This document shows, in pieces, positions 4,441-39,140 of a stretch of DNA of 64,000 bases. Under the pieces are notes generated by a model, which saw nothing but the letters and a program-made list of their open reading frames with translations, did no database searches and was not told the origin of the DNA. Within the stretch, counting starts at the first letter, position 1; each line of letters begins with the position of its first letter. The stretch is from a virus. The translations under genes were made by a program, and so were the position numbers. The stretch lies in the IMG/VR virus record IMGVR_UViG_3300042566_000510, positions 1 to 64,000 of that record; one strand, written 5' to 3'.

Positions 4441-5424
4441 ATGACTACTACCGCTTACGGCGATATTTCGCCCCGTACCGCTGCTTACGCTGAAAAAGAA
4501 CTGCTGAAGCGCGGCCTCCCTTACCTCGTGTTGGAAAAGTTCGGTCAAGCCAAGGCTTTGCCCGAGCACGCCACCAAGGTGATCAAGTTCCGTCGCTACA
4601 ACGCACTGCCAAACACCCCTACGGCTTTGACCGAAGGCGTGACTCCAGCAGGTCAAGCGTTGACCGTGACTGACGTGACTGCCACCCTCGCCCAGTACGG
4701 CGACAAGGTGACCATCACTGACGTGATCTTGGACACTCACGAAGATCCAACTCTGAACGAGTCTGTTGCCCTCTTGGGTGAACAAGCCGCTCAGATGATC
4801 GAGAAGATGCGTTTCGGCGTGTTGAAGGCTGGCACTAACGTGTTGTACGCCAACGGCGCTGCTCGCACTGACGTGAACACAGCGATCTCCTTGACCATCC
4901 AGCGTCGCGCAGTGCGTGCCCTGAAGCGTCAAAACGCTCGCTTCATCACGACCGTGGTTCGTTCGACACCTTCGTTCGGCACCGAGAACGTGGCTCCTGG
5001 CTTCGTCGCCTTGATCCACCCTGACCTCGAGGCTGACGTCCGTTCGTTGACCGGCTTCGTTCCTGCTGAAAAGTACGGCACGATGACCCCATGGGAAAAC
5101 GAAATCGGCAAGTGCGAAGACGTGCGCTACTTGAGCTCTACCATCTTCAGCCCCTTCGCTGATGGCGGTGGCGACAAGGGCACCATGTTGTCCACTACCG
5201 GCACCAAGGCCGACGTGTACCCCGTGTTGTTCGTTGCTCGCGACGCCTACGGCATCGTGGCATTGAAGGGCATGTTCGCGTTGACCCCAATGGTCGTGAA
5301 CCCCAAGCCAAGCGATTCCGATCCTTTGGCCCAACGTGGTCACGTCGGCTGGAAGGCAATGCAGACTTGCACGATCTTGAACGACGCATGGCTCGTTCGC
5401 GTGGAAGTTGCGGCTACGGCCTAA
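4441..5424 (+). CDS. Major capsid protein, N4-gp56 family
   Basis: 327 aa; motifs LEKFGQ, IKFRRY, LTEGVTP, QYGD, DPLAQRGHVGWK; strong RBS and strongly biased codons. Confidence 0.93.
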   Translation: MTTTAYGDISPRTAAYAEKELLKRGLPYLVLEKFGQAKALPEHATKVIKFRRYNALPNTPTALTEGVTPAGQALTVTDVTATLAQYGDKVTITDVILDTHEDPTLNESVALLGEQAAQMIEKMRFGVLKAGTNVLYANGAARTDVNTAISLTIQRRAVRALKRQNARFITTVVRSTPSFGTENVAPGFVALIHPDLEADVRSLTGFVPAEKYGTMTPWENEIGKCEDVRYLSSTIFSPFADGGGDKGTMLSTTGTKADVYPVLFVARDAYGIVALKGMFALTPMVVNPKPSDSDPLAQRGHVGWKAMQTCTILNDAWLVRVEVAATA

Positions 5425-23394: not shown

Positions 23395-26300
23395 ATGGAA
23401 TTCAAACCATCAATCTCACCAGAGCAGTTTGACATGATGCAGGGCGGTGGCCAGCCCACCTCGTCCGCCTCTCCGTCTCAGAAGTATGCCGGAGGATTTG
23501 ACGCTGCTGCGTCATTCACCCTTGGTGAGGAAGGTGGCTACGTCAAAGATGACGCCGGAGCCGGGGAAACAAACTTTGGCATCAACAAGCGGGCAAACCC
23601 AGACGTTGATATCAAGAGCTTGACCGAGTCTGGTGCGCGCGATTTATACAAGACGCGCTACTGGAATCCGATTGGCGGAGATGAGCTTGCAAAGCGCAAT
23701 CCCATTCTTGCAACCATCGCTTTCGACACGGCCATCAACATGGGCCCGACGACCGCCAAGAATTTTTTACGCGCCGCGAATGGAGATCCGGCAAAGGTTC
23801 TCGAGATGCGCGCTGAGCGCTATCGCGATCTGCTTGCAGCCGATCCCAAGAAGTTCGGCAAATACGCAGATGGCTGGCAATCTCGGATGGACAAGCTGTA
23901 TGAGCTTGCAGGGACTCAGCAGCCCGCAGCGCAGCCAACGAATGACTTCAGCGGGGAAGGCTCAACTGCTGGCGGCATCGATTGGAACGCCAAAGAAAAG
24001 GGCTTCGTTGATCGCGCGTCCGAGGGGTTTAAGCGCGGCTTTGATCAGTCCATTGGCTTAGGCCAAGCGGCTGCAGCATTGGTGAACCGCACAGTCACTG
24101 GTGAAAAGTACAACGAGTTTCAGGATGAAATGTTGCAGGCGGCAGGCAAGCGCATGCAGCCAGAGGGCAGCGCACCTACGCCTCAATTCAGCGACGTCGT
24201 TTCCGGCGGCGCGAACTTTAAAGATTGGCTTGCCGACTCGGTAGGCTACCTTGGATACCAGGCCGTTGAGATGGCGGCCTCGTTCGGTATCGGTGGACTC
24301 ATCGGTAAAAACATTGCCAAAGGCGCCGTCAAAGAGGTCGCCGAGGGCATGATTGAGAAAGAGGTCGCTCGACTCGCCGCCACCGACGCAGCCAAAACTC
24401 TCAGCAAGGATGAGATCGGAGCGCTCGCGGTCAAGAACGTCGCCGGCGAGATTGCTGGCAGCATGGCCACATTTGCAAACAATCTGCGCCAAACGTCTGG
24501 CGGCGTCTACATGGAGGCGCTGGACAATGAGGCGAAGACCGGCAAGCCAGCCGACTTAACCAATGCATGGGTCGGATCAATTGGATCAGCACTGGTTGAC
24601 ACCGCTGCTGACATTGCTGGCGCTCGAGGCATCTTAGGTAAAGCTGGTAGCGGAAACGCCACGTTTTTGGGCCGCGCTGCAACGCAAGTTCCGCGTCAGA
24701 TGGGGATTCAAGGCGGTACGGAGTACCTGCAAAGCAACATCGAAAACGCGGCAGCAGGCACAGACCCGTTCACCGAGAAGGCTCAGATTCAGGCGTTGAA
24801 CGAGGGCGCTGTAGGCGCACTTGGTGGCGTCTTTCCAGGTCTTGGGGAGGCTCGCGTTCAACGCGCTACAAACCCTTTGCAGTCAGTCATCGACCATGCC
24901 GAAAAGCCTGGCAGCGTGCTCTCGCGTGCTGTGGTTTCTACCGGCGTTACCGATCAGGCTGCAGCAGCGGCCGCATCAGAAGCCCTGCCTCCCGCGGCTG
25001 ACGACCTCGTGCAACGCGTGCGCGACGTCGAAGCCGGCATGCGCAATGGCCCCGTGCTCGACAACTTGCGTGACGACGGCGTTGACACCCGTGAGCTCCT
25101 CAATGACATGCAGCTTGCCCGTCGCACGGACGCGCCACGCGTTGCCCGTGAGGCTGCCCTCGAGCGCATCGAGACGGCGATCCACTTTGCAAACCAGGAC
25201 GCGCAACCGCGTGCGCCGCTGGACTCGATCCAGAGCAACCCCGCTTTCGACTTCACTCAACAAGAGCAGGTTGAGCCGCAACAAATCCCTGACTTGTCAG
25301 CAGTATCGACCGCGCTGCGTGACCCGAATCTGCGCAACACCATTTCTGACGAAGATCGCGACCAACTGCTGTATTTGTACAACATCGCCGGAAATAGCAA
25401 GGGTGATACCGTCGTGCGCACAAATGCCGCACGTCAAGCGCTCGAGATCGTCGGCCGCTATCAAACCCCTGTCGGCACGCCAGGCAGCACAACGCCCGCA
25501 TTGGAGCAGGCTGCGCAAGCGGGTGCTGCTATTGCTACGCCTGCTGAGCAACAAACTGTTGCCGCAGAACCCAAAGAGTTGGACTTCCTGCAGGCCGTGC
25601 CCGAGCCAAAGGTCGGCATCCCTGCCGGCGAAGGTCCGGCCTTTCTGCGTAAGCGCGCTGCTGTAGTCAAGCAACTGGTCGACAACGGCTTTGAGACCGT
25701 CCAGCGCGACAGCAAAGACTTCTACCTCACCAACACCAAGACCGGCCAAAAGTTCAAGCTCGACGGCTCAGCCGATGCTCAGCTCGCTCGCAAGGCGATC
25801 AAGGATCGAGTCGACGCGCTCGCTGCAACCAACGAGAAGAATCCGTCTCAAGCCAAGATCAACGCCAACAACTACAAGAAGTCCGACGTCATCGACTTGA
25901 ACGGCATGAAGATCAAGATCGAGAACGAGCGTGGCGACATCCGCCGCGGCGTCGGTCCTGATGGAACGCCGTGGGAAACAAAGATGGCTCACCACTACGG
26001 TGAGTTCCAGGGAACGATCGGCGCAGACGGCGACAAGCTCGACGTCTTTATTGGCCAACGCCCTGACAGCAACAAGGTGTACGTGGTCGACCAGGTCAAT
26101 CAGGACGGCTCATTCGACGAGCACAAGGTCATGATGGGCTTCACCTCGAAAGAGGATGCCAGCTCCGGCTATCTGGCCAACTACGAAAAGGGCTGGACCG
26201 GCCTTGGCGCCATCACCGAAATGAGCGTCGACGAGTTCAAGACCTGGGCCAAGTCACGCGCTGCCAAGAAGCCCGCCTCCAGCGTGCTCGAGAACGCCGC

Positions 26301-29300
26301 GGCCGCAGGCCAAGATCAATTCACCGAAGAAGAGAAGGCCGAGGAGAAGAGCGGCAAGTTCTTCTACGTCAATGACGGCGAGAAGCAGCACAAGCTCAAG
26401 ATCATCAAGCCCGGCGAGCTTTCCAAGAAGCCAAGCGCCGAGCGCCCCGGCAATCGTCGCCCTCTGACGCAGGCTGATGCCGCACTCATCGAGAAGGTCG
26501 CTGCACTTCTGGGCAAGAACGTCGTGTTCTTTGAGGCTCAAGAGGGCCGCCTCTCTGACGGCTTCGTACGCCCCGGCCAACCCGACACTATCTACGTTGC
26601 CACCGAGACCACGGTCAATCCGCTGGCAATCTTTGGTCACGAGTTCTTTCACACCCTGCGCGAGACCAATCCCAAAGCCTGGGACGCCGTCGCTGCCGTG
26701 GTGGGCACCAAGGTCACCGCCGCCAAGCGCTTCCGCAAGGACCGCTACGGCAAGAAGGTTGCCGACGCAAAGGGCGACGCCGCACTCAGCACTGAGGTTG
26801 GTGGCGAGCTCGAGGAGCTGGTGTCTGACCTGGGCGGCAACCTCCTAAAGGACTCCAAGTTCTGGAAAGAAGTCTTTGCCAAGATCGAAGCTGACAACGG
26901 CGCCGAAGCCAAAGGCATCATCGCCAAGCTGTCGGCCGCCATCCAGAGCGCGATCACTCGCATCGTCAAGGCGATCAACCAGCCAGGCTACCGCGCTGAC
27001 AGCTTCGTCAAGGATCTCGATCAAGTACGCGCTGCGTTCGTGGACGCAATGGCTGCGCACCTCAAGAATGGCGACGTCGAAAAGATGGCCGCCACCGCGA
27101 ACCAGAAGATCAAGAAGTCCGAAGATCGCGACGGCCTCACTGTCGAGGGCTATCACTTCAGCAAGGCGCCTCGCACCGTCTTGACCACCGCCATGTTTGG
27201 CACCGGCCTCAAGGGCAGCGCTCGCGAAGACATCAAGAACAACCCAGACCAGCGCCTGCGCCAGCGCCTGTCTTTCTACTTCGACAAAGGCACCGGCATC
27301 AATCCGGAAGCTGGCGTTGGCAGCATTGCCCACAAGGCAACTCTCACCAACATCTACGACGCCGATGCAGATCCGTTGCGCCTGCGTACGGGCGATGCAC
27401 GCGCGTTCGAGTCCAAGGTTCTGGATAACGGCTACAGCGGCTACCTCCAGCGCATGCAAGGCACGCAGTCCGGCCAGGTCATCTTGCTGGGCAAGCAGAC
27501 CGTCAAGCCCGAGATTCTCGGCGCTGTTGGCAAGATCACCAACGCCGAAGTGGTGCCAGCTCCCAAGCAGCGCGCCGCTGATGTTGGCGACCAGATCATG
27601 GCCAACAAAGATCTGCCAGCGGGCGCACTGACGCCGACGCAATGGTCAGAAGCGCTGATGCAGAAGATGCCCGAAGTGGCAGCACAGCTGATGGACATCG
27701 GCGCCTTCGAGGGCAACGACTCCATGTACAAGGATGAGCTTGTCGCCAAGGCGCGCCAGCTCTCCAGCCAGATCAAGAAGTCTGCCGATCGCGCACGCGA
27801 CGAGTACGCCGAAGTCGAAGCCAAATACAAAGGCACCGACGAATGGCTGAAGGCGCCCAACGGCGAGAGCACCAACCTCAGCGAGCGCCAGTGGATCCAA
27901 GTCCGCACGCCTTCATTCAAGAAGTGGTTCGGCGACTGGGAGAAGTTTGCCGGCATGCAAGGCGGCGTTTGGAATGACGCCAAGAACGAAGTCTCCAAGG
28001 CTGTCGACAAGAACGGTGAGCCGCTGGTCGTCTACCACGGCACCAACAAAGGCGGCTTCTCTGAGTTCAACACGCCCGGCGGAGAGAAGCGCGGAGATCT
28101 TGGGATTTTTACCACGCCTAACCTGGAGATGGCGCAGACCTACTACAGCCGTCGAGGCGGAGAAATCGATCTCTCCGACAAGGACCAAGGCGATCTCGAG
28201 GATATCGGCTACCAATTCAAGCCAGGCTTTATCGTCAAAGGAAGCGATGTTGGCTTCTTTGATAGCAAAGAACAATTGCTCGAAGAGGTTGAACTCGATC
28301 CCGGCGAAGAGATTGTCGAGGCATGGGATGTCACCGATCCAAACGGCTACAACGTAGACGGGCCGCGTGATCACTCGTACTACTTTGAATCGCTTGCCGA
28401 CGCCGTTGGCACAGTAAACCTAAATATGGCGCAAGAGTCGACGAAAGAGTCTGGCTATTACGCCCTGTTCGCCAACATCCGCAATCCATCCGAGAGCGAC
28501 TTTGAGGGCGCCAACTGGGAAGGTTCACGCGAAGGTCAGTACAACGTCATCAATCAAGACGGCGAGCAGGTCTACGACAAAGACGGTAAAGGTGTCTTCA
28601 ACTCCTATGACGAAGCCCAGGAGGTGCAGTTCGCCAACCCCGGAACTACGGTCGAAGGCGCGGCCGATCACTACGAAACCACCGATGACGTGGTTTTGAA
28701 TGCAAAGCGCTACGGCAACGACGGCGCTTACATGCAGAACGTCGTGGACGCAGGCCCAGGTGGCGGCGCGTACATCGACGAGCCATCCGATATCTTCGTT
28801 GCGCTCGATCCATCTCAACTCAAGTCTGCCAACTACAACAGCGGCGAGTTCAGCGTTGACAGCAGCGATTTGCGCTTCTCGAAAGACCGCCTCACGCGCG
28901 AAGATCCGTTCGAGATGTCGACGCGCATCCCAACAGCCAAAGGCAAAGTGGTCGAGGACCATGCCGGAGATCTCCTGATCTCCGACTTTGCCGCCGGTCA
29001 GAAGCAGGAGAAGTGGGTCAACTCGGTGGCCAACCTGGTCGCGCAGTACCCCAACTATCGCGAAGCAGACAGCGCCAAGACGCCAGCCAAGAAGCTCGAG
29101 CGCCTTGTCCGCCATATGGTTGAGAACCTCGTCTGGTTGCACAACCAAGTGCCGGCCGAGACTCGCCAACGCAGCAAGCTGTGGTACGACGGCGCCAACC
29201 GAATTGCCGAGCGCATGTCTCGCAAGTACGAGCTGACGCCAGCGCAATCGTCCGGCATCCTCGCCGTGCTAAGCCCGCAAAAAGACTGGTTCATGAACGT

Positions 29301-31140
29301 GAGCCTGGGCGAGCGCGTTGCCTCGATCATGGCTGAGCGCCAGAACTTCCAATGGTCCAAGGACATGGATGCCACGGCCAACCGCATCTATGGTGCGGCC
29401 AAGTACCAGGAAGACGTTGACGCCATCCGCGGCAAGTCCCTATCCGACCTGGACGGCAAAGCATACCTGCAAGCCATGTGGGTGCGCACGTACGACCAAG
29501 CTCACAACTCGAGCTCGTTCAACATCGTGTCACCCGAAGGTGATTCGCTGGCGATCGCCAAGGCCAAGACCGGCAACCCGGTCAAGGTGGCATGGGGCGG
29601 CAACAGCACCATTGCCAAGGCCATCTCGATCTTCAACGACGGCTCTGCAAGCAACATCAGCGAGCAGTTGGGCACCAAGCACAAGGTGCGCAACTTCTTC
29701 AACAACATCCTGGTGCCAAAGAGCAAGAACGGCCACGTCACGATCGACACGCACGCCGTCGCTGCTGCGCTGCTGCGACCTCTGTCCGGCAACTCGCTCG
29801 AGGTGATGCAAAACTTTGGCGGCACCTCGAACGCCATCAGTGGTCTACAGGGCACCTATGCTCTGTACGAAGAGGCCTACCGCCGCGCGGCCGAAGAGCT
29901 TGGCCTTCTGCCTCGCGAGCTGCAATCAATCACCTGGGAGGCTGTCCGCGGCCTGTATACCCCGGGCTTTAAGTCACAGTCGAAAAATGTTGACGCTGTT
30001 GATAAAATATGGAATCAGTACAAGAAAGGACGACTGAGCTATGACGGAGCAAAAGAATGGGCACTCGAAACTGCGGGAGGAATTGAGCCTCCTAGCTGGC
30101 TCGGACGCGACCCTGGCGCATATGTTGAAGACGAATCGTCCATTGAGCCTGGAGACGTATCTGGAGATGGAGTATCCGGAAGGGATTCCGAAGACGCTTT
30201 CATCCGAGCAGTGGGCGATGATTCCGGAGCCGCTGAAGAGAGCATCCGACAATCAGGAGACCGAGAAGGACGGGATGAAAGCGGAGGCATTGCGCCGCTT
30301 GCAGGTGCGCCAACTGTTCAAGGCGCGTCCGGGCCAGACCCGCGGCTCGTCCAAGTAGCAAACAAGTACGCCAGCGACAACGGCATCACACTCCGCCGCC
30401 AGGCAGAGTACGTTGAGGTTGACCCCGAGCGCGCAGCTCGGATCGCGGCCGCCTACGAGGCTATGCCGCACGCCCCGCAAGACCGCAAGGTCAAAGCAGC
30501 ATTTGCCAACCTGATCCGCCAGACGCGCGCTCAGTACGACGCGCTGGTTGATGCAGGCTACAAGTTCACGTTCTTCGACTCGAAGAGCGACCCCTACGGC
30601 GGCAACCCATGGAACGCCATGCGTGACCTGCGCGAGAACCAGCGCATGGCCGTGTACGGCACCTATGACGGCTACGGCACCGAAGGTGTGACCAAGAGCA
30701 AGGTCGACGACAACCCAATGCTGGCCGACACCGGCCTTGAGTGGGAAGACCAGAACGGCAAGCTTCATCCAGTGCTGGCCAACGACCTGTTCCGTGCCGT
30801 GCATGATGCTTTCGGTCACGGCCTTGAGGGCACCGGCTTCCGCGCTCGCGGAGAAGAGAATGCGTGGCAGGCTCATATCCGTATGTTCACCGGCTCTGCC
30901 AAAGCTGCGATCACCACAGAAACGCGTGGCCAAAACAGCTGGCTGAACTACGGCCCGTACGGTGAAAAGAACCGCGTCGCCAAAGTTGAAGACACAGTCT
31001 TCGCCGAACAGAAGACTGGCCTGATGCCTGAGTGGACTTGGTCTGAAGGGTTGGCTGAAGACATGCCGACCAAAGACGAGCCCACTTACAATCAGCGCGT
31101 CAACGCCCTCAAAGATTTGATCTCCTGCCTGAAGAAATAA
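23395..31140 (+). CDS. Large polyvalent (ejection) protein 1: GH108-type muramidase, inorganic pyrophosphatase, HExxH peptidase, ART-like domains, HhH DNA-glycosylase-like domain, C-terminal HDxxGH domain
   Basis: 2581 aa; EEGGY..GETNFGI; YG..GT.GADGDKLDVF..DEHKVM; GHEFFH..EE; YHFS; PLVVYHGT; HKVRNF..VTIDTH; FRAVHDAFGH..GEENAW. Confidence 0.85.
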   Translation: MEFKPSISPEQFDMMQGGGQPTSSASPSQKYAGGFDAAASFTLGEEGGYVKDDAGAGETNFGINKRANPDVDIKSLTESGARDLYKTRYWNPIGGDELAKRNPILATIAFDTAINMGPTTAKNFLRAANGDPAKVLEMRAERYRDLLAADPKKFGKYADGWQSRMDKLYELAGTQQPAAQPTNDFSGEGSTAGGIDWNAKEKGFVDRASEGFKRGFDQSIGLGQAAAALVNRTVTGEKYNEFQDEMLQAAGKRMQPEGSAPTPQFSDVVSGGANFKDWLADSVGYLGYQAVEMAASFGIGGLIGKNIAKGAVKEVAEGMIEKEVARLAATDAAKTLSKDEIGALAVKNVAGEIAGSMATFANNLRQTSGGVYMEALDNEAKTGKPADLTNAWVGSIGSALVDTAADIAGARGILGKAGSGNATFLGRAATQVPRQMGIQGGTEYLQSNIENAAAGTDPFTEKAQIQALNEGAVGALGGVFPGLGEARVQRATNPLQSVIDHAEKPGSVLSRAVVSTGVTDQAAAAAASEALPPAADDLVQRVRDVEAGMRNGPVLDNLRDDGVDTRELLNDMQLARRTDAPRVAREAALERIETAIHFANQDAQPRAPLDSIQSNPAFDFTQQEQVEPQQIPDLSAVSTALRDPNLRNTISDEDRDQLLYLYNIAGNSKGDTVVRTNAARQALEIVGRYQTPVGTPGSTTPALEQAAQAGAAIATPAEQQTVAAEPKELDFLQAVPEPKVGIPAGEGPAFLRKRAAVVKQLVDNGFETVQRDSKDFYLTNTKTGQKFKLDGSADAQLARKAIKDRVDALAATNEKNPSQAKINANNYKKSDVIDLNGMKIKIENERGDIRRGVGPDGTPWETKMAHHYGEFQGTIGADGDKLDVFIGQRPDSNKVYVVDQVNQDGSFDEHKVMMGFTSKEDASSGYLANYEKGWTGLGAITEMSVDEFKTWAKSRAAKKPASSVLENAAAAGQDQFTEEEKAEEKSGKFFYVNDGEKQHKLKIIKPGELSKKPSAERPGNRRPLTQADAALIEKVAALLGKNVVFFEAQEGRLSDGFVRPGQPDTIYVATETTVNPLAIFGHEFFHTLRETNPKAWDAVAAVVGTKVTAAKRFRKDRYGKKVADAKGDAALSTEVGGELEELVSDLGGNLLKDSKFWKEVFAKIEADNGAEAKGIIAKLSAAIQSAITRIVKAINQPGYRADSFVKDLDQVRAAFVDAMAAHLKNGDVEKMAATANQKIKKSEDRDGLTVEGYHFSKAPRTVLTTAMFGTGLKGSAREDIKNNPDQRLRQRLSFYFDKGTGINPEAGVGSIAHKATLTNIYDADADPLRLRTGDARAFESKVLDNGYSGYLQRMQGTQSGQVILLGKQTVKPEILGAVGKITNAEVVPAPKQRAADVGDQIMANKDLPAGALTPTQWSEALMQKMPEVAAQLMDIGAFEGNDSMYKDELVAKARQLSSQIKKSADRARDEYAEVEAKYKGTDEWLKAPNGESTNLSERQWIQVRTPSFKKWFGDWEKFAGMQGGVWNDAKNEVSKAVDKNGEPLVVYHGTNKGGFSEFNTPGGEKRGDLGIFTTPNLEMAQTYYSRRGGEIDLSDKDQGDLEDIGYQFKPGFIVKGSDVGFFDSKEQLLEEVELDPGEEIVEAWDVTDPNGYNVDGPRDHSYYFESLADAVGTVNLNMAQESTKESGYYALFANIRNPSESDFEGANWEGSREGQYNVINQDGEQVYDKDGKGVFNSYDEAQEVQFANPGTTVEGAADHYETTDDVVLNAKRYGNDGAYMQNVVDAGPGGGAYIDEPSDIFVALDPSQLKSANYNSGEFSVDSSDLRFSKDRLTREDPFEMSTRIPTAKGKVVEDHAGDLLISDFAAGQKQEKWVNSVANLVAQYPNYREADSAKTPAKKLERLVRHMVENLVWLHNQVPAETRQRSKLWYDGANRIAERMSRKYELTPAQSSGILAVLSPQKDWFMNVSLGERVASIMAERQNFQWSKDMDATANRIYGAAKYQEDVDAIRGKSLSDLDGKAYLQAMWVRTYDQAHNSSSFNIVSPEGDSLAIAKAKTGNPVKVAWGGNSTIAKAISIFNDGSASNISEQLGTKHKVRNFFNNILVPKSKNGHVTIDTHAVAAALLRPLSGNSLEVMQNFGGTSNAISGLQGTYALYEEAYRRAAEELGLLPRELQSITWEAVRGLYTPGFKSQSKNVDAVDKIWNQYKKGRLSYDGAKEWALETAGGIEPPSWLGRDPGAYVEDESSIEPGDVSGDGVSGRDSEDAFIRAVGDDSGAAEESIRQSGDREGRDESGGIAPLAGAPTVQGASGPDPRLVQVANKYASDNGITLRRQAEYVEVDPERAARIAAAYEAMPHAPQDRKVKAAFANLIRQTRAQYDALVDAGYKFTFFDSKSDPYGGNPWNAMRDLRENQRMAVYGTYDGYGTEGVTKSKVDDNPMLADTGLEWEDQNGKLHPVLANDLFRAVHDAFGHGLEGTGFRARGEENAWQAHIRMFTGSAKAAITTETRGQNSWLNYGPYGEKNRVAKVEDTVFAEQKTGLMPEWTWSEGLAEDMPTKDEPTYNQRVNALKDLISCLKK
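30041..30358 (+). CDS. Overprinted small ORF nested in polyvalent protein 1 (putative inhibitor/immunity protein)
   Basis: AAAGGA RBS 10 nt before ATG; G/C third positions move into this frame; host frame is a low-complexity linker; globular-looking core PLSLETYLEMEYPEGIP. Confidence 0.6.
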   Translation: MTEQKNGHSKLREELSLLAGSDATLAHMLKTNRPLSLETYLEMEYPEGIPKTLSSEQWAMIPEPLKRASDNQETEKDGMKAEALRRLQVRQLFKARPGQTRGSSK

Positions 31141-31146
31141 AGAACC

Positions 31147-34100
31147 ATGGCCCAATTCTCAAACTGCCTCCAGATCGTCAACAACATGCCTGAGCGCGAC
31201 CAGGAGGCTCTGCTGAGTCGACTGGATCAGCTCCAAGCTCAAGGCCTGTCAGCCAAGGAGGCGCAGCTTCAGGCGGCCATTGACGTGCTGGCGCAGGTTG
31301 AGCGCGAGGGTCAAGTTCGCAAAAGCGCAGACCGCACCTGGAGCGGGGACGGGTATCGAGCCCTGAACTACAACCCGCCAAAGAATGCAACGGTTGCCGA
31401 TGTAGTCCGATACGAAAGCGAAGAGCTTGGCAATGCAGACATTGGAGAGATGGCCGATGAGTCCGCCAATCAGCTCGGCATTGACCTTTCTGCGATCCCA
31501 GCGTCCGATGCGATCTGGGTGACGCACACCGTAGAGCAGGCAATGCAGTACGGCGAGCGCTCAGACATTGATAAATACCCCGTCAACGGCTGGCTGATCC
31601 TGGCCGACCTTGGCGACGAGGGCGCGCTACTCCTAAATCCCAAGCATGCTCAAGGCATCCTCAAGTCCGTCGACCGCCCTCAGTTCTACAGCCAGCTTCA
31701 GCGCTCAATTGAGCAAGTGCCCGAGCGCCTGGCAACCATGGCTGCGCCAGCATGGAAGCAGTGGCTCACGGCCAACGCCTCTAAGCTCGGCATCAAGGCC
31801 GACGAGCTCGAGTGGTCCGGCATCAAGGACTACCTGGACCTGCAGGGCAAGGCCAAGCTCAATAAGGCTGATCTCTCCTCCTACCTCGACGACAGTGGCG
31901 TCAAGATCTCCGAGGTACAGCTTGACGATGCTGATGCCAAGCGTTCGCGAGCAGACAAGGAGGCTGCAGCAAACAAACTTACGCGAGCCACCTTGGAGCT
32001 CCGCGAAGCTACGCCAAACATTCGTCAGCTGGATGGCGCCAACCTCACCGGATGGGCCGAAGATGCCTATGCCGGCGATGAATTTGCACAGCGGAAGATC
32101 CAAGCACTTAGCCTGGATGACAACGCCATGGCTGCAGTGCGTGAATATGGCCGCGTCGCAGCCGAATTTAACGAGGTTCATAACACTCGCAATTCACCGG
32201 CAACCAAGTACGGCCAGTACACCCTGCCAGGTGGTGAGAACTACCGCGAGGTGCTGATCACGCTGCCGGTAACGCCAAAAGATGGCGCCACCATTCAGCA
32301 GGCGTCATCTGGTTTCTGGCGTGTCACATTCAAAAATGGCGACACGGCAATGTTCAAGACGGAGTCGGAGGCTCGCGCAGCGGCTGGCGGAAGCGATGCG
32401 TACACATCAAGTCACTGGGACCAGAAGAACATCCTTGCCCACATCCGCGTCAACGACCGAGTCGCACAAGAGCCTGGCTTCATTGTGCGCAACACCCGCT
32501 CCGGCAACCGCAGCGAAGTGTTTGCAACCCGCGAGCAAGCTGAGGACTACCAAGCCAAGATGCCTGCGTCCTTGAAGACGGAAATCGTTGAGCAGCCTCG
32601 CGAAGTAAAAGTTCTCTTCGTGGAAGAAGTTCAATCGGACTGGGGCCAAGAAGGTAAGAAGAAAGGGTTCGCCGGCCAGAATGGCGCGCCTTTGTCTGAG
32701 CAGGAATACAAGCGCGCTGCCGAGCTGCAAAAGCGTGACCGCCTTGGCGGCGAGCCCTTGAGCGCCACTGAGCGCGCAGAGTTTGACGCGCTGATGGCCC
32801 GTCACACGCGAGCTCATGAGGGACTGATGGTTCCCAACGCCCCCTTCGTCACCAAGACCGAAGGCTGGCTCAACCTCGCGCTCAAGCGCATCGCCATGAT
32901 GGCCGTCGAGGGTGGCTACGACAAGGTGGCTTTCGTCAACGGCGAGCAGTCGGCTGACCGCTACAGCCTGGAAAAGCAAGTCGATGAGCTTTCCTACGAG
33001 CCAACAGCCAAGGGCTACTACATCAACGTGATGGCCAGCGGTCGCAACATCAAGAGTGGCGACTTCACGAAGAGCGAGCTCGAGGACATTGTCGGCAAAG
33101 AGATTGTCCAAAAGATGGACGCTCGCGAAGGCAAGGTCGAGGGCACGCCAGGGGCTCCGGACTACGAAGATTTGAAGGATATTCGCACTCTGAGTGGCGA
33201 CGGTCTCAAAGTCGGCGGTGAAGGCATGAAGACCTTCTACGACAAGCTCGTGCCACAGGCTCTCAACAAGCTGCTGCCTAAGCTGGGCGGTGAGAAGCTG
33301 GGCGCCGTCGAGATCGACGTGCAAGGAACCGGCCTGCAGACTCGGTACGAGTACCAAGGCCCAGAGCTCAAGCGATCCGAGATCGATGCAATTGCAAGGT
33401 CAGGCGATTTCTCTGTATCGATTGAGCGTCAGTTGCGCGAAATCGGTAGCTTTGTGGAAGTCGGAGTGCCCATGGCGGAGGCGGTGCAAAAGTATGGCTC
33501 CATCTCTGCGGCTGAAGCGCTCGGCGGCAAGCTGGTGCCAATGAAGAATGCGATGTCCGCGCAACCAGGCTTCGACGTCACAGACAAGATGCGCGAGACC
33601 GTGTCTGCCGGTGTGCCGCTTTTCAGCCGTGATCGCCAGACAGAGACGCCTGAGTTTAAGAAGTGGTTTGGCGACAGTAAGGTGGTGGATGCTGAGGGTA
33701 AGCCGCTGGTGGTTTATCACGGGACTGGCGGCGACTTCGATTCATTCGATGCCGCTCGCTCGGGCCAGAACTACGCTCGACGTGGCGGAGAAAAAGGCTT
33801 CTTCTTCACGAACAGGCCAATTCCCGCTGGCGTGTACGCCGAACAGGCGAGCGGAGCCTTCTTTGGTGACGAAGAGAACCCTCGCTTCGGCGACGGTACG
33901 GCCAACATCATGCCGGTGTACCTGTCGCTGCAGAATCCCTACGTCCGCAAAGCGACCGGCTCTCCTGACAAATGGTTCGATTCAAACCACAGCGCCTTGC
34001 TGGCTGCCGCCGAAAAAGCTGGCGCTGACGGCATCATTGTTAATGGCGGCAAAGGATTTGAGATCCGCAGCGTTTACATCGCATTCAGCCCCACCCAAAT

Positions 34101-36909
34101 TAAATCCGCCACAGGCAACAACGGCCAGTTCGACGCGACCAACCCAGACATCCGCAAGTCTGCCGACCGCCCTTGGTTCGACGACCTGAGTAAGCTTAAG
34201 GTCACAACCAACTACCAGCTCGGCGACTTGCTGAAGACCAGCAAGAAGCTGTCTTGGTGGGATCGCACCATCGGCACACAGTACAACCTGGCGCAGAAGC
34301 ACCCGCAGTTCAAGCGCGTGTTCGACGCTGTGCAGCGCTTCATCAACGACGTGTCGCTCTACGCCACCCGTGCTGCCGACCTGGCGCCAACCTGGCTGCC
34401 AAAACTGGATGGCATTTCGGACATCAACCCGTTCAGCAAGAATTTCAAGCGCCCAGTTTCCGCGGAGGACGTCAAGGCTTTGCGTGACCCCATCTTTGGC
34501 GGCACGCTCAAGTACACCCGCGACGAAAACGGAGAGCTGATCGAGTCGGATGATGTGTCCACTGCAGGCGTGGTGTTCACCAACGAAGAGCTGCGCACAA
34601 ACTTCGGCTTGAACGATCGCCAGATCGGCCTGTACCGCGAGTTCCGCAAGTCGGTCAACAAGAGCATTTCAGACTTGGCCGTATCGGATTCGCTGCGCTA
34701 CCTCGGTAAAGATGGCGAAGGCGTGCGCCAGCGAGCGCTTGACGCCGCCAATCTGGATGACGCACTAAATGCCATGGTTGCTCACCTTGATCAGTTGATC
34801 GCTCAGCAGCCGGAGCGCGCAGAGGTACTTGAAGATAGTAAGCGCGTCATCAAAGAGAAGGCGGGCCAGGCCATCGGCGCAATGTCACGCGGTTACGCAC
34901 CTTTGTCTCGCTTTGGTGAGTACACGGTCTACGCTACCGGCGAAGGGCTCGAGGAACCCATCTTCTTCATGTTCGAGAATGAGCGCGATGCAAACGTGCG
35001 TGCTCGCGAATTACAACGCGAATTCCCAGACGCCAACATTGAGCAAGGAACGATGAGCCAAGAGAGCTACAAGCTCTTTAGCGGCGTGACGCCAGAATCG
35101 CTTGCCCTGTTTGGCGAGGCTCTTGGGCTCGAGGAGTCCGGCGCCGACACCAAGTCGCAGGCATTCCAGATGATGCTGAAGATGGCCAAGGGAAACCGGT
35201 CCGCCATGAAGCGCATGATTGAGCGTAAGGGTATTGAGGGCTTCAGCGAAGATGCTGGTCGCGTGCTGGCTGGCTTCGTGTACAGCAATGCGCGTCAGAT
35301 CTCGACCAACCTGCATGCCGGAGAAATCGCACGCAGTGTCCAAGAAATCGATCAGCGAAATGGCGACGTTAAGGACCAAGCTGTCCGTTTGATGGAATAC
35401 GTGCAGAACCCACGCGAAGAGGCTCAAGCCTTACGCGGCCTGATGTTTACGCAGTTCATCGGTGGCTCTATCGCTTCGGCCATAGTCAACATGACTCAGC
35501 CGTTCACCATGACCCTGCCTTACCTGAGTCAGTTCGACGGCGCCACCGGTGCCGCCTCTCGCATGGCCGACGCAGTGAAGCTGGCCTCTCGCGGCATTCG
35601 CAATGACGACGACCTCAAGGCTGCACTCAAGCGCGGAGAGGATCTCGGGATTGTTAGTCCGCAGGAAGTGCATCAGCTCATGGCTCAGGCTCAAGGCAAG
35701 GGCAAGCTGCAAACCGGCGACGGCACCAAGATGGGCGACGCTGCGGCCAAGGTGAACAACGGCCTAGCCAAGCTTGGTCTGGCGTGGGGCAAGGTGTTCT
35801 CGGCTGCCGAACAGTTCAACCGTCGCGTGACCTTCATCGCTGCCTACAAGCTGGCTCGCGACCAAGGCATGGCCGATCCAATGGCTTTCGCTGAGAAGGC
35901 CATCGCTGAGACGCAAGGCGTGTACAACAAAGGCAACAAGCCAAACTGGGCTCGCGGCGCAGTGGGCGGCACCTTGTTCACGTTCAAGCAGTATTCAATC
36001 GGCTACCTCGAGTTCTTGCGCCGCATGTGGGGTAACGGACCAGAGGGCAAGAAGGCCGTCGGCCTCGCGCTTGGCGTGTTGTTCCTCATGTCTGGCTTGG
36101 GCGGCATGCCTGGCTCCGACGATCTGGATGACGTCATCGACGGCTTCATGCAGCGCGTGCTCGGCCGTAGCTTTGACAGCAAGCAAGCGAAGAAAGAGTT
36201 CTTCGCCAGCATCCTGGGTCAATCCGGCGCTGAGTTTGTGATGAGCGGACTGTCTGGCTTGCCAGGCATGCCAATCGACTTCTCCGGTCGCACGGGTCTA
36301 GGCAACATAGCTCCAGGCACTGGCATCTTCACCAAGAAGCGCGACTACGCCCAGGACTACAAAGAGGTGCTTGGCCCTGTCGGCACGCTGGCAACAAATG
36401 CAGGATCTTTCCTGGCAAACTTTGCGGCCGGCGAGTTCGGCAAGGCTGCGGAATCGGTTGCGCCGGTTGCTGCGCAGAACGTCATCAAGGCAATCGACAT
36501 GGCGCAGATGGGCTTCTATCGCGATGCTAAGGGCCGCAAGGTCATTGACACAACGCTGAGCGAAGCCATCCTCAAGGGTGCAGGCTTCCAGCCACGTTCG
36601 GTCAGTCAGATCCAGCAAGCCACCGGCGAGCAGCAGGGTCTCATCGCGCAGAACCGTTTGGCATGGCAGGAGATCCGTGATCTCGCTGTTGCCGGTCGCG
36701 TCGAGAAGGATGAGGCCAAGCTTGCAGAGGCGCGCCGTCGCTTTGGCCAGTGGAATCGCAACAACCCTGACAGCCCAATCCGCTGGAATCAAGAGTCCAT
36801 CAACAGCGGCGTCAAAGAAGCCAACAAGCCAAAGGCTGAGCGCATCGCTGATGCTGCGCCCAAGCAGATCCGCGGCACAGTCAAGCGAGAACTTGAGAAG
36901 GCCGACTGA
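31147..36909 (+). CDS. Large polyvalent protein 2: EExQSDW domain, ART-PolyVal-like domain, PLxRFG domain, C-terminal helical (LPD38-like) region
   Basis: 1920 aa; LFVEEVQSDWGQ; PLVVYHGT..GFFFT..PVYL..NP..DGII..F.PTQIKS; YAPLSRFGEY. Confidence 0.85.
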   Translation: MAQFSNCLQIVNNMPERDQEALLSRLDQLQAQGLSAKEAQLQAAIDVLAQVEREGQVRKSADRTWSGDGYRALNYNPPKNATVADVVRYESEELGNADIGEMADESANQLGIDLSAIPASDAIWVTHTVEQAMQYGERSDIDKYPVNGWLILADLGDEGALLLNPKHAQGILKSVDRPQFYSQLQRSIEQVPERLATMAAPAWKQWLTANASKLGIKADELEWSGIKDYLDLQGKAKLNKADLSSYLDDSGVKISEVQLDDADAKRSRADKEAAANKLTRATLELREATPNIRQLDGANLTGWAEDAYAGDEFAQRKIQALSLDDNAMAAVREYGRVAAEFNEVHNTRNSPATKYGQYTLPGGENYREVLITLPVTPKDGATIQQASSGFWRVTFKNGDTAMFKTESEARAAAGGSDAYTSSHWDQKNILAHIRVNDRVAQEPGFIVRNTRSGNRSEVFATREQAEDYQAKMPASLKTEIVEQPREVKVLFVEEVQSDWGQEGKKKGFAGQNGAPLSEQEYKRAAELQKRDRLGGEPLSATERAEFDALMARHTRAHEGLMVPNAPFVTKTEGWLNLALKRIAMMAVEGGYDKVAFVNGEQSADRYSLEKQVDELSYEPTAKGYYINVMASGRNIKSGDFTKSELEDIVGKEIVQKMDAREGKVEGTPGAPDYEDLKDIRTLSGDGLKVGGEGMKTFYDKLVPQALNKLLPKLGGEKLGAVEIDVQGTGLQTRYEYQGPELKRSEIDAIARSGDFSVSIERQLREIGSFVEVGVPMAEAVQKYGSISAAEALGGKLVPMKNAMSAQPGFDVTDKMRETVSAGVPLFSRDRQTETPEFKKWFGDSKVVDAEGKPLVVYHGTGGDFDSFDAARSGQNYARRGGEKGFFFTNRPIPAGVYAEQASGAFFGDEENPRFGDGTANIMPVYLSLQNPYVRKATGSPDKWFDSNHSALLAAAEKAGADGIIVNGGKGFEIRSVYIAFSPTQIKSATGNNGQFDATNPDIRKSADRPWFDDLSKLKVTTNYQLGDLLKTSKKLSWWDRTIGTQYNLAQKHPQFKRVFDAVQRFINDVSLYATRAADLAPTWLPKLDGISDINPFSKNFKRPVSAEDVKALRDPIFGGTLKYTRDENGELIESDDVSTAGVVFTNEELRTNFGLNDRQIGLYREFRKSVNKSISDLAVSDSLRYLGKDGEGVRQRALDAANLDDALNAMVAHLDQLIAQQPERAEVLEDSKRVIKEKAGQAIGAMSRGYAPLSRFGEYTVYATGEGLEEPIFFMFENERDANVRARELQREFPDANIEQGTMSQESYKLFSGVTPESLALFGEALGLEESGADTKSQAFQMMLKMAKGNRSAMKRMIERKGIEGFSEDAGRVLAGFVYSNARQISTNLHAGEIARSVQEIDQRNGDVKDQAVRLMEYVQNPREEAQALRGLMFTQFIGGSIASAIVNMTQPFTMTLPYLSQFDGATGAASRMADAVKLASRGIRNDDDLKAALKRGEDLGIVSPQEVHQLMAQAQGKGKLQTGDGTKMGDAAAKVNNGLAKLGLAWGKVFSAAEQFNRRVTFIAAYKLARDQGMADPMAFAEKAIAETQGVYNKGNKPNWARGAVGGTLFTFKQYSIGYLEFLRRMWGNGPEGKKAVGLALGVLFLMSGLGGMPGSDDLDDVIDGFMQRVLGRSFDSKQAKKEFFASILGQSGAEFVMSGLSGLPGMPIDFSGRTGLGNIAPGTGIFTKKRDYAQDYKEVLGPVGTLATNAGSFLANFAAGEFGKAAESVAPVAAQNVIKAIDMAQMGFYRDAKGRKVIDTTLSEAILKGAGFQPRSVSQIQQATGEQQGLIAQNRLAWQEIRDLAVAGRVEKDEAKLAEARRRFGQWNRNNPDSPIRWNQESINSGVKEANKPKAERIADAAPKQIRGTVKRELEKAD

Positions 36910-37990: not shown

Positions 37991-38000
37991 GAGGGTGGCC

Positions 38001-39140
38001 ATGGGCGTCCGTCAGACCCCGAGCGGGAAGTTCGAGCTGCGCATCACGCACCGTCTGTTGCCGAAGGCGGTGTACCTCACCTTCAACAACGAAGACGCTG
38101 CCAACGCGTACGGCGCGCAAGCACGCGAGCTCCTCGACTCTGGTGTTGTGCCGGCCGGACTGGTCGATGAGAAGAAGGTGCCAACGCAAACGCTGCACTC
38201 AGTGATCCGCGCATGGCAGGCGCACGGTCAACTCTCCACGGCTGATGACGAGATCCTCGACGTGCTGACGGGAGAGATCGGCAAGACCAAGCTGTCCGAG
38301 TTCACGTACGCCTGGTGCGAGCAATGGGTGCGCGATATGAAGCTCAAGGCCAACCTGGCGCCCGGCACCATCCGTAAGCGCATCGGCGCCCTCGCCCGCT
38401 GCGTTGACTGGGAACTCAGGAAGACGCCGGACCTGCTGGTCGGCAACCCCTTGCGCTCACTTCCGCGCGGATCAGCCACCTACAGCGCCAAGGATGCAGC
38501 GGAAGCGAAGAAGCTGGGCAAGAAGGTGCGGCAGGACGCAGTGCGTGATCGGCGCCTGCACAGTGGCGAGCATGAGCGAATCATGAAAGCGCTGGCCGGC
38601 GAAAAGCGAGAGGACCGTCAGCGGCCGCTCGAGCCCGATGAAGACCTGCGCGACCTGTACCTACTGATCTTGCATACAGGTATTCGACTGCGCGAGGCGT
38701 ACACCATTAAGCGTGAACAGGCCGGCGAACGCGTGCTGCGCATCAGCAGCTCGAAACAGTGGCACGGGCGGGAAGCCTGGCGCGATGTGCCCATGGTCAA
38801 AGAGATCCGTCAGATGATGGCCCGTCGTGCCGCTAAATCAAAGCCAGGAGCGCTTGTTTTCCCTTGGTGGGACGGAGACCCCCAAGAGCTCGACAAGGTC
38901 ACCACGCGGCTCTCTCGTCGCTTTGGCTTGCTGTTCAACTACGCAGGTTGCGTAGACTTGACTGAGCACGACTTGCGTCACGAGGCGACGTGCCGTTGGT
39001 TTGAGATGCGCGACAAGAGGGGTGGCTGGCTTTTCCGCGAAGCTGAGATCGAGAAGATCATGGGCTGGGCGCCGGACAGCTCAATGGCCAAGCGCTACGC
39101 ATCATTCCGAGCTGAAGACCTAGCCGAGCGTCTTGACTGA
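38001..39140 (+). CDS. int: Tyrosine integrase
   Basis: Catalytic set TGIRLRE, HDLRH, MGW, KRYA; LAPGTI core-binding motif. Confidence 0.92.
   Translation: MGVRQTPSGKFELRITHRLLPKAVYLTFNNEDAANAYGAQARELLDSGVVPAGLVDEKKVPTQTLHSVIRAWQAHGQLSTADDEILDVLTGEIGKTKLSEFTYAWCEQWVRDMKLKANLAPGTIRKRIGALARCVDWELRKTPDLLVGNPLRSLPRGSATYSAKDAAEAKKLGKKVRQDAVRDRRLHSGEHERIMKALAGEKREDRQRPLEPDEDLRDLYLLILHTGIRLREAYTIKREQAGERVLRISSSKQWHGREAWRDVPMVKEIRQMMARRAAKSKPGALVFPWWDGDPQELDKVTTRLSRRFGLLFNYAGCVDLTEHDLRHEATCRWFEMRDKRGGWLFREAEIEKIMGWAPDSSMAKRYASFRAEDLAERLD

Follow-up and report, generated by a model that had tools for sequence, protein, structure and literature searches.

The stretch analysed here (the window; 64,000 nucleotides of viral DNA) carries on its plus strand a giant polyvalent virion gene (23395-31140), and the locus raises the question of whether a small gene is embedded in it in another frame and, if so, what its product would do. 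The giant gene was defined from the ORF list, its translation and Pfam matches. Its product of 2581 residues joins many unrelated conflict-type domains within one ORF, namely a GH108 muramidase, InPase, ART-PolyVal, DUF7178 and an unnamed C-terminal domain (Pfam), and ART-PolyVal is also contained in the neighbouring ORF of 1920 residues. A single giant virion protein that unites GH108, InPase, ART-PolyVal and related domains makes the gene typical of the polyvalent proteins described for phages and conjugative elements (Iyer et al. 2017, PMC5512222). That survey describes no immunity or overlapping genes for these proteins; the words 'overlapping', 'frameshift' and 'glycosylase' occur 0 times each in it, and a nested partner gene and the pairing of DUF7178 with a small module, as reported below, are absent from it.

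The candidate gene is a complete ORF at 30041-30358 (plus strand) which lies in the +1 frame relative to the giant gene and encodes 105 residues followed by a TAG stop (30356-30358). Its ATG at 30041 is formed from the rare tyrosine codon TAT and a following GA(C/A). A Shine-Dalgarno-like AAAGGA (30025-30030, plus strand) is separated from the start by 10 nt (AAAGGA-N10-ATG), and a TGA at 30035-30037 shuts the +1 frame just 5' of the ATG. The ORF, its frame and its start signals were thus located where the original prediction had placed them. In the main frame AAAGGA is read as two rare codons, AAA (6-25% of lysine codons in these genes) and GGA (9-23% of glycine codons), and it is identical in the window and L004-L007 (five relatives). 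TAT at the start site is invariant, though it makes up 7-21% of tyrosine codons. Strong Shine-Dalgarno sequences were observed in two other nested copies, GAGGAGG-N6-ATG in L031 (50% GC) and GCAGGAGG-N6-ATG in L030. An own promoter for the nested gene was considered and rejected, as the promoter-like site at 29980-30008 is kept only in the window and L004.

Base composition changes over the same region. The giant gene as a whole has GC1/2/3 of 0.63/0.43/0.70, whereas the main frame over 29970-30330 has about 0.75/0.55/0.41, so that it is the +1 frame which shows the genome-typical pattern here. The main frame encodes an acidic linker rich in Gly, Asp and Ser (30100-30309, plus strand; residues 2236-2305) with a GC3 of about 0.40. 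Both parts of the predicted contrast, genome-typical codon positions in the nested frame and an acidic, low-GC3 linker in the main frame, were therefore recovered by measurement. The nested region is the longest and strongest shifted-GC stretch of both giant genes, with nine consecutive 150-nt windows. Four other alternative-frame ORFs within the two giant genes (24821-25666, 27692-27847, 31217-31363 and 32273-32572) were rejected as further nested genes; they are junk-like and conserved less than the main frame. Judged from the sequence, the two giant genes hold only one predicted nested gene. When the main-frame protein and codon usage were kept in synonymous shuffles, the +1 frame was found to be open with P = 0.50 in the window and 0.05-0.93 in relatives. 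Such openness is not improbable and is no evidence by itself, and the case for a nested gene therefore rests on homology and constraint.

With regard to homology, a profile made only from nested copies (A1) and one made only from free-standing copies (A4) were aligned by hhalign with a probability of 98.7% and an E-value of 2e-16. With regard to constraint, the nested frame was more conserved than the main frame in all 28 lineage pairs (mean z 13.0 vs 3.3). Main-frame divergence at third positions falls from 0.44 to 0.27 (p=0.003) and that at positions 1 and 2 rises, which was counted toward the nested gene. Wild variants in the flanks comprise 32 synonymous and 5 non-synonymous changes, and within the nested stretch each of the three variants alters the main-frame protein, whereas two of them are silent in the nested frame. 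The lineage pairs, the homology to free genes and the variant pattern together point to purifying selection on the embedded frame. We consider 30041-30358 to be very probably a real, translated gene, and the proposal of a genuine nested gene that has a ribosome-binding site of its own is upheld by the homology, the 28 pairs and the invariant start codons.

The protein it encodes belongs to a family of small modules. The conserved part is an acidic helical core (30092-30244, plus strand; residues 18-68) defined by alignments A1, A2, A4 and A5, and an AF2 model of the module has a pLDDT of about 80-85 over residues 11-70. Of 203 members, 95% have an acidic core; the mean net charge is -4.9 and the median pI 4.6. 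Distant nested copies stop directly after the core, and the basic tail of the nested protein is probably dispensable. We collected 1801 cluster representatives at E<=1e-3 (454 at E<=1e-10), most of them 55-130 residues long, and the commonest forms have 60-70 residues and carry no cargo. Searches of Pfam, PHROGs and PADLOC gave no match to this family of about 1800 sequence clusters. ESM Atlas gave no usable match, tblastn against GenBank phages nothing below E=1, Foldseek with the model against the PDB no match and VIA a maximum Z of 4.3. In BFVD the model matched only one unnamed protein of 77 residues, a likely family member, and conservation along A1 was too low throughout for loci to be scanned with it. 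By its sequence relationships the module is an old and widespread family which also occurs free and fused. Since gene callers pass over ORFs that lie inside longer genes, the family would be left unannotated wherever it is nested.

Upstream of the nested gene lies the DUF7178 unit (28912-30126, plus strand; residues 1840-2244), a conserved block of about 400 residues defined by tblastn, AF2 and VIA; tblastn located it as a whole in 38 of 41 loci compared. Its AF2 model has a pLDDT of 90.3. In VIA, HhH-GPD glycosylases or QNG1 fill all of the first 20 places, with Z 9.4-5.6 over 163-228 aligned residues; among them are 3n0u (Z 9.4), 7ugk (8.6), 1xqp (7.2) and 2abk (6.5). For helical models, a VIA Z under 13 does not settle the fold; the modelled unit resembles an HhH-GPD glycosylase with a match of intermediate strength for such a protein (Z 9.4), in keeping with the glycosylase-like domain originally proposed at this position. 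Foldseek with the same model returned nothing at E<=0.001, and the DUF7178 profile and its motif segment gave only chance matches against PDB chains, with no sequence link to solved glycosylases. In the alignment of 22 sequences (A6), the invariant columns are K258, R260, F262, N264, N265, T277, D279, T280 and H281. K258 and D279, which are 21 residues apart, form a candidate catalytic Lys/Asp pair and correspond in the window to the motif K2097...D2118-T-H (K-x-R-N-F-F-N-N...T-I-D-T-H; 29683-29754, plus strand), which may be comparable to K120/D138 of endonuclease III. No mention of 'DUF7178' was found in the literature searched. This domain of unknown function gains a tentative fold-level assignment and a putative dedicated partner, which makes a testable enzyme-regulator pair.

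Gene layouts taken from IMG/VR and GTDB loci connect the two proteins. The module adjoins the DUF7178 unit in all viral loci examined except L028, and at every nested locus it lies directly behind this unit. Elsewhere it is a downstream gene, coupled by 1-4 nt (L025, L035, L040 and L041) or overlapping by 20-122 nt (L029, L042, L039 and L019); in L026 it is convergent with the DUF7178 gene, tail to tail, and at some loci it forms the N-terminus of the next protein. The pairing is kept while the next domain varies between ART-PolyVal, LPD39, Zeta toxin and an unnamed domain. Orphan copies without the enzyme body were found in bacterial chromosomes (L044 and L046). The carriers include a prophage of a cultured bacterium, Jannaschia seohaensis DSM 25227 (L045). 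The expectation that the small gene travels with the glycosylase-like domain, also as a free downstream gene, is borne out by these layouts, and we regard the module as a likely physical partner of DUF7178.

We propose that the small acidic helical module is a dedicated partner of the upstream enzyme which would bind it non-covalently and cap its nucleic-acid-binding face. As an immunity-like safety cap it would keep the enzyme inactive both inside the producing cell and next to packaged phage DNA, and unfolding at ejection would strip it off. The HhH-GPD-like model of the enzyme, the acidic core, the cargo-less forms and the orphan copies are counted for this reading; the N-terminal fusions, which are uncommon among immunity proteins and characteristic of docking domains, count against it, as do the intermediate strength of the fold match and the DUF7178 lineages in which no module was recognised. 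That the module is specifically an inhibitor or immunity protein, as first suggested, has in our view slightly less than an even chance. The wider scheme, a virion safety system in which an acidic, DNA-mimicking partner, encoded out of frame in the linker of the giant gene, keeps a packaged glycosylase-like enzyme inert until ejection arms it and bacterial orphans provide anti-phage immunity, is unlikely as a whole. Ugi of phage PBS2 is a small acidic protein inhibitor of a DNA glycosylase and is comparable, since here too a phage protein that is small and strongly acidic goes together with a DNA-glycosylase-like enzyme. However, the enzyme here is the phage's own and not a host UDG, inhibition is putative, and neither fold nor sequence similarity to Ugi-type inhibitors was detected for the module.

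The arrangement is also similar to the effector-immunity pairs of polymorphic toxin systems, including MuF-type phage toxins (Zhang et al. 2012, PMC3482391). In both, a C-terminal enzymatic domain has a small gene right behind it, often coupled, which is kept with this domain regardless of the other domains, and orphan copies occur in bacteria. Adjacency and co-occurrence were observed in all viral loci, whether nested, adjacent, overlapping or convergent, save for L028, and the chromosomal loci L044 and L046 have no enzyme body. Unlike in such pairs, the module often forms the N-terminal part of the large protein that follows, and toxicity of the enzyme and its neutralisation are putative here.

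These fusions fit a docking or adaptor role equally well, in which the module would tether the next polypeptide of a split polyvalent protein to the C-terminal face of DUF7178 for co-packaging and co-ejection without inhibition. Copies that are nested or free of cargo would then be remnants or serve as structural caps. The module was observed at residues 3-60 of many proteins of 340-1000 residues with varied cargo, including Zeta toxin, and is N-terminal in 25 of the 41 members longer than 130 residues, and in all split forms DUF7178 lies at the C-terminal end of its own polypeptide. The C-terminal domain of the giant protein (30280-31137, plus strand; residues 2296-2581) is itself module cargo in two proteins of other phages: P0064 (375 residues) consists of the module, a linker and the same domain and matches it with 42% identity (blastp, E 2e-57), and P0058 also combines module and domain in one in-frame protein. 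The majority of members, however, are the cargo-free ones of 55-130 residues, and the window has its cargo domain covalently joined to DUF7178 already, yet the module and its start signals are still conserved, which argues for a role beyond tethering. A purely docking function is rather improbable, although it fares better than the remaining alternatives.

Less probable still, and quite unlikely in our estimate, is that the module is an obligate subunit, chaperone or activator required for the folding, stability or activity of DUF7178 in a two-component enzyme. Tight adjacency with ATGA coupling is typical of stoichiometric complexes, and the association is kept over deep divergence. Against this, the DUF7178 lineages L008 and L014-18 retain all invariant residues of the motif with no recognisable module, and the orphan modules exist without the enzyme.

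The +1 ORF could also be an untranslated remnant of a swallowed downstream gene, with the main-frame linker as the only product, and an open +1 frame is indeed expected from the composition of that linker. This is very unlikely: a dead frame would have decayed, whereas the nested amino acids stay conserved across lineages whose DUF7178 units are merely 42-50% identical, the rare codons at the start site are invariant and wild variants spare the nested frame. Programmed ribosomal frameshifting, by which ribosomes would either finish the giant protein in the module or run on from the module into the C-terminal domain, as P0064 and P0058 have it in a single frame, is extremely improbable, since a conserved +1 stop directly precedes the conserved Shine-Dalgarno sequence and ATG that open the nested frame, no slippery heptamer X-XXY-YYZ occurs in either frame over 29990-30360 and the distant nested copies end directly after the core.

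The nested gene can be compared with the Rz/Rz1 spanin genes of phage lambda, one of which lies entirely within the other in its +1 frame. Here too a complete small gene with its own initiation signals lies within a larger gene on the same strand in another frame, and both products are predicted to act together. The two cases differ in that the host here is a polyvalent virion gene of 2581 codons, the main frame encodes no more than a disordered linker across the overlap, the embedded gene is older than that reading and has free and fused relatives, and the products are unrelated to spanins.

The direction of overprinting is the reverse of that first assumed: an old small gene has been overlaid by a younger main-frame reading, the acidic linker, opposite to the usual assumption. 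The ancestral layout was likely an enzyme gene followed by an ATGA-overlapping, translationally coupled small partner gene. In the lineage of the window the enzyme gene would have lost its stop and come to read through the partner gene in the other frame, with the out-of-frame product forming a disordered connection to the domain that follows; the nested gene would probably be expressed by internal initiation at AAAGGA-N10-ATG on the shared late mRNA. A single origin may account for the nested state. This suggests a route of growth for a giant polyvalent gene, which swallows a small downstream gene and reuses its DNA out of frame as a flexible linker, and the series of coupled, partly overlapping and fully nested layouts provides a model for the rise and persistence of long same-strand overlaps. 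The main-frame motif IRQSGDR starts near 30244, where the conserved nested core stops. Among the closest relatives the third codon position is free in neither frame, and therefore the main-frame linker is not unconstrained.

The nested ORF of 105 aa extends from an ATG at 30041 to a TAG at 30356-30358 in the +1 frame of a giant polyvalent gene (23395-31140; 2581 aa with GH108, InPase, ART-PolyVal and DUF7178 domains). AAAGGA is found upstream of this ATG at 30025-30030 and a TGA at 30035-30037 shuts the +1 frame just before it. GC content by codon position is 0.63/0.43/0.70 over the whole giant gene but about 0.75/0.55/0.41 in the main frame at ~29970-30330, so the normal signature sits in the +1 frame, and this +1-frame stretch is the longest of its type in this gene and a second giant gene (31147-36909; ART-PolyVal). 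The original prediction had described the ORF, its AAAGGA and the GC signature correctly. The open +1 frame, taken alone, proves nothing about a gene: when synonymous codons were reshuffled with the main-frame protein held constant, the frame was still open in 50% of trials in the window and in 5-93% in relatives, because the Gly/Asp/Glu/Ser/Arg linker seldom yields +1 stops.

Homology and constraint are more informative. Searches with the upstream domain retrieved loci in which the same +1 ORF was observed: four close relatives (L004-L007, 72-76% identity in the queried DUF7178 segment) and three distant ones (L009, L012 and L019, 42-50% identity). All of them retain a conserved peptide core while the main-frame linker has diverged. 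A profile of the nested peptide matched 49 database proteins, and an HMM scan of 1.84 billion representatives with this small module gave 1801 matches at E<=1e-3 and 454 at E<=1e-10, mostly of 55-130 aa; no match was found in Pfam, PHROGs or PADLOC. An alignment of nested copies only (A1) matched an alignment of free or fused copies only (A4) with 98.7% probability and an E-value of 2e-16, which rules out a chance match of an out-of-frame reading to a protein family.

Over the 51 codons that follow the P-x-W motif at the end of the upstream domain, the nested frame scored above the main frame in all 28 pairs drawn from eight lineages (mean z of 13.0 versus 3.3). Among five close sequences, divergence at codon positions 1/2/3 is 0.20/0.15/0.44 in the flanking codons versus 0.30/0.27/0.27 in the core (30100-30240), and the drop at the third position is significant (p=0.003). 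Of the 37 flanking variants listed from contigs of other freshwater metagenomes, 32 are synonymous. Just three lie in the nested stretch; all three are non-synonymous in the main frame whereas two leave the nested protein unchanged, and the third replaces Glu with Gln, a residue that relatives also carry. There is essentially no variation in the start region AAAGGACGNCTGAGYTATGA, where AAA (6-25%), GGA (9-23%) and TAT (7-21%) are kept even though they are minority codons in these genes. Textbook start signals precede the nested copies of L031, a locus of 50% GC (GAGGAGG-N6-ATG), and of L030 (GCAGGAGG-N6-ATG). On homology and constraint at the sequence level, the nested ORF is considered to be a genuine gene. 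Its basic tail (aa 69-105) is modelled with low pLDDT and overlaps the conserved beginning of the C-terminal domain; it is taken to be incidental, and distant nested copies end directly after the core.

The DUF7178 unit directly upstream is a block of ~400 aa (28912-30126) flanked by two linkers and containing Pfam DUF7178. Its model has a pLDDT of 90.3. Foldseek returned nothing significant with this model, but in an exhaustive VIA search the top 20 chains all came from HhH-GPD DNA glycosylases or from the queuine-salvage nucleoside hydrolase related to them, including Tm1821 (Z 9.4, 186 aa aligned), DUF2419/QNG1 (8.6), Pa-AGOG (7.2) and EndoIII (6.5-7.0), together with OGG1, Mag1, MutY and AlkA. 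The argument for a glycosylase-like fold is the uniformity of the list, the Z-scores being middling for a helical protein. Residues K2097 and D2118 (in T-I-D-T-H) are invariant and may be counterparts of the Lys/Asp pair in endonuclease III; sequence searches against solved glycosylases did not confirm this equivalence. A text search of a literature library for "DUF7178" found no paper containing the term, and a survey of polyvalent proteins mentions neither overlapping genes nor glycosylases in its text (PMC5512222). At 29706-29756, which encodes the invariant H-V-T-I-D-T-H motif, read depth in two metagenome runs leaps to some 90-100x across roughly 50 nt, of which 31 nt are matched by an abundant but unrelated contig of 2.6 kb. 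The DNA of the putative catalytic motif is common, at the nucleotide level, to other more abundant phages.

The DUF7178 unit was recognisable in nearly all of the loci retrieved. Those obtained via the small module differ in layout. The module is fully nested in the window, L004-7, L023, L012/24, L009, L030, L031-33, L034 and L045 (a Jannaschia seohaensis prophage). It is a separate downstream gene overlapping the enzyme-gene stop by 1-4 nt (TGATG or ATGA) in L025, L035, L040 and L041, and overlaps by 20-122 nt in the +1 frame in L029, L042, L039 and L019. Co-occurrence, free downstream gene included, was one of the checks proposed with the original prediction, and it is borne out. In L026 (983-1549) and L027 (database protein P0052, 14 member sequences), DUF192 is fused in frame to the module, and this gene and a DUF7178 gene of 1041 aa lie tail to tail. 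In L039 (1259-5008), a 1249-aa protein joins a Zeta-toxin kinase domain to a C-terminal DUF7178 unit, and the free module gene after it probably starts with TTG.

Three loci are exceptions. L028, the sole viral one, has neither DUF7178 nor an ATG for the module; a module-like +1 reading (W-T-P-E-H-E-A-E-L-P-E, 4902-5225) lies inside a 1413-aa ORF which gave no match to DUF7178 or any other Pfam family. L044, a contig of Parvibaculum indicum DSM 25305, carries an orphan copy of the module gene (4842-5177) fused in frame to just the last ~30 residues of a DUF7178 unit. A tyrosine integrase and a serine resolvase flank this copy, which could represent either the decayed edge of a prophage or an orphan partner gene that has been retained. 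In L046, a Bradyrhizobium MAG, an orphan module is located near rpoD. No module was recognisable behind the unit in DUF7178 lineages L008 and L014-18, and L010 is doubtful. A 58-aa +1 ORF behind DUF7178 in the low-GC lineage of L010, L011 and L013 (e.g. L010:2372-2548) shows a faint likeness to the first half of the module and may be a copy that has degenerated or diverged very far.

The direction of overprinting is the reverse of that originally proposed. The module family is large, with free, fused and nested forms, and the nested frame bears the native codon signature while the main-frame reading gives a poorly conserved linker of low complexity. P0064 (375 aa) consists of the module, a linker and a domain homologous to the C-terminal domain of the window's own giant protein (aa 2296-2581; 42% identity, E 2e-57), and P0058 is similar. 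The linker is therefore the young reading. In the simplest account, an enzyme gene would have adjoined a coupled small gene, the latter sometimes fused to a downstream domain; the enzyme gene would then have lost its stop and read through the small gene in another frame, and this out-of-frame reading would have connected the enzyme to the downstream domain. In a tree of DUF7178 units, rooted at the midpoint only, the nine nested rows fall within one 12-row group (support 94/93) that also includes L019 (partial overlap), L008 and L010, with adjacent forms branching outside; nesting may have arisen once. The nested state was kept while the units diverged to 42-50% identity, and over the same divergence the downstream domain was swapped (an unnamed C-terminal domain, ART-PolyVal, LPD39, or methyltransferase-like/Zeta toxin).

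The data show a conserved small protein encoded beside the glycosylase-like domain, or within the linker after it, with coupling signals, and we infer that the two bind each other. The nested-protein model has short helices (pLDDT about 80-85 over residues 11-70) and structure searches with it gave no informative neighbour. The module core is acidic in 95% of 203 family members (mean charge -4.9, median pI 4.6). We favour an inhibitory cap, which would prevent the enzyme from doing harm in the producing cell and the DNA-filled capsid and be shed upon ejection. The main rival is a docking domain that would connect one polypeptide of a split polyvalent protein to the next, a role suggested by the many N-terminal fusions; in numerous database proteins of 340-1000 aa the module occupies residues 3-60 and cargo of various kinds follows. 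The inhibitory cap is favoured because the module is acidic, cargo-less forms predominate, the module is kept where cargo is already covalently attached, and orphan bacterial copies exist. An obligate subunit and a fossil frame are less likely, as is a frameshift product, for which no slippery heptamer was found in either frame at 29990-30360 and against which the stop-SD-ATG arrangement is conserved.

A scan of the window's giant genes for further nested genes found none. Three short stretches at 24535-24985 and 25405-25585 have a +1-frame GC3 pattern, probably due to Ala/Gly-rich main-frame linkers; a +1 ORF covering two of them (24821-25666, 281 aa) was rejected since it translates to Ser/Arg/Cys/Thr-rich junk. 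The viral contig to which the window belongs is 77.5 kb long with direct terminal repeats, and lake and freshwater metagenomes of several studies contain near-identical DNA. A tyrosine integrase gene (37995-39140) follows the giant genes, and the phage, which has a large virion-protein arsenal, is therefore probably temperate.
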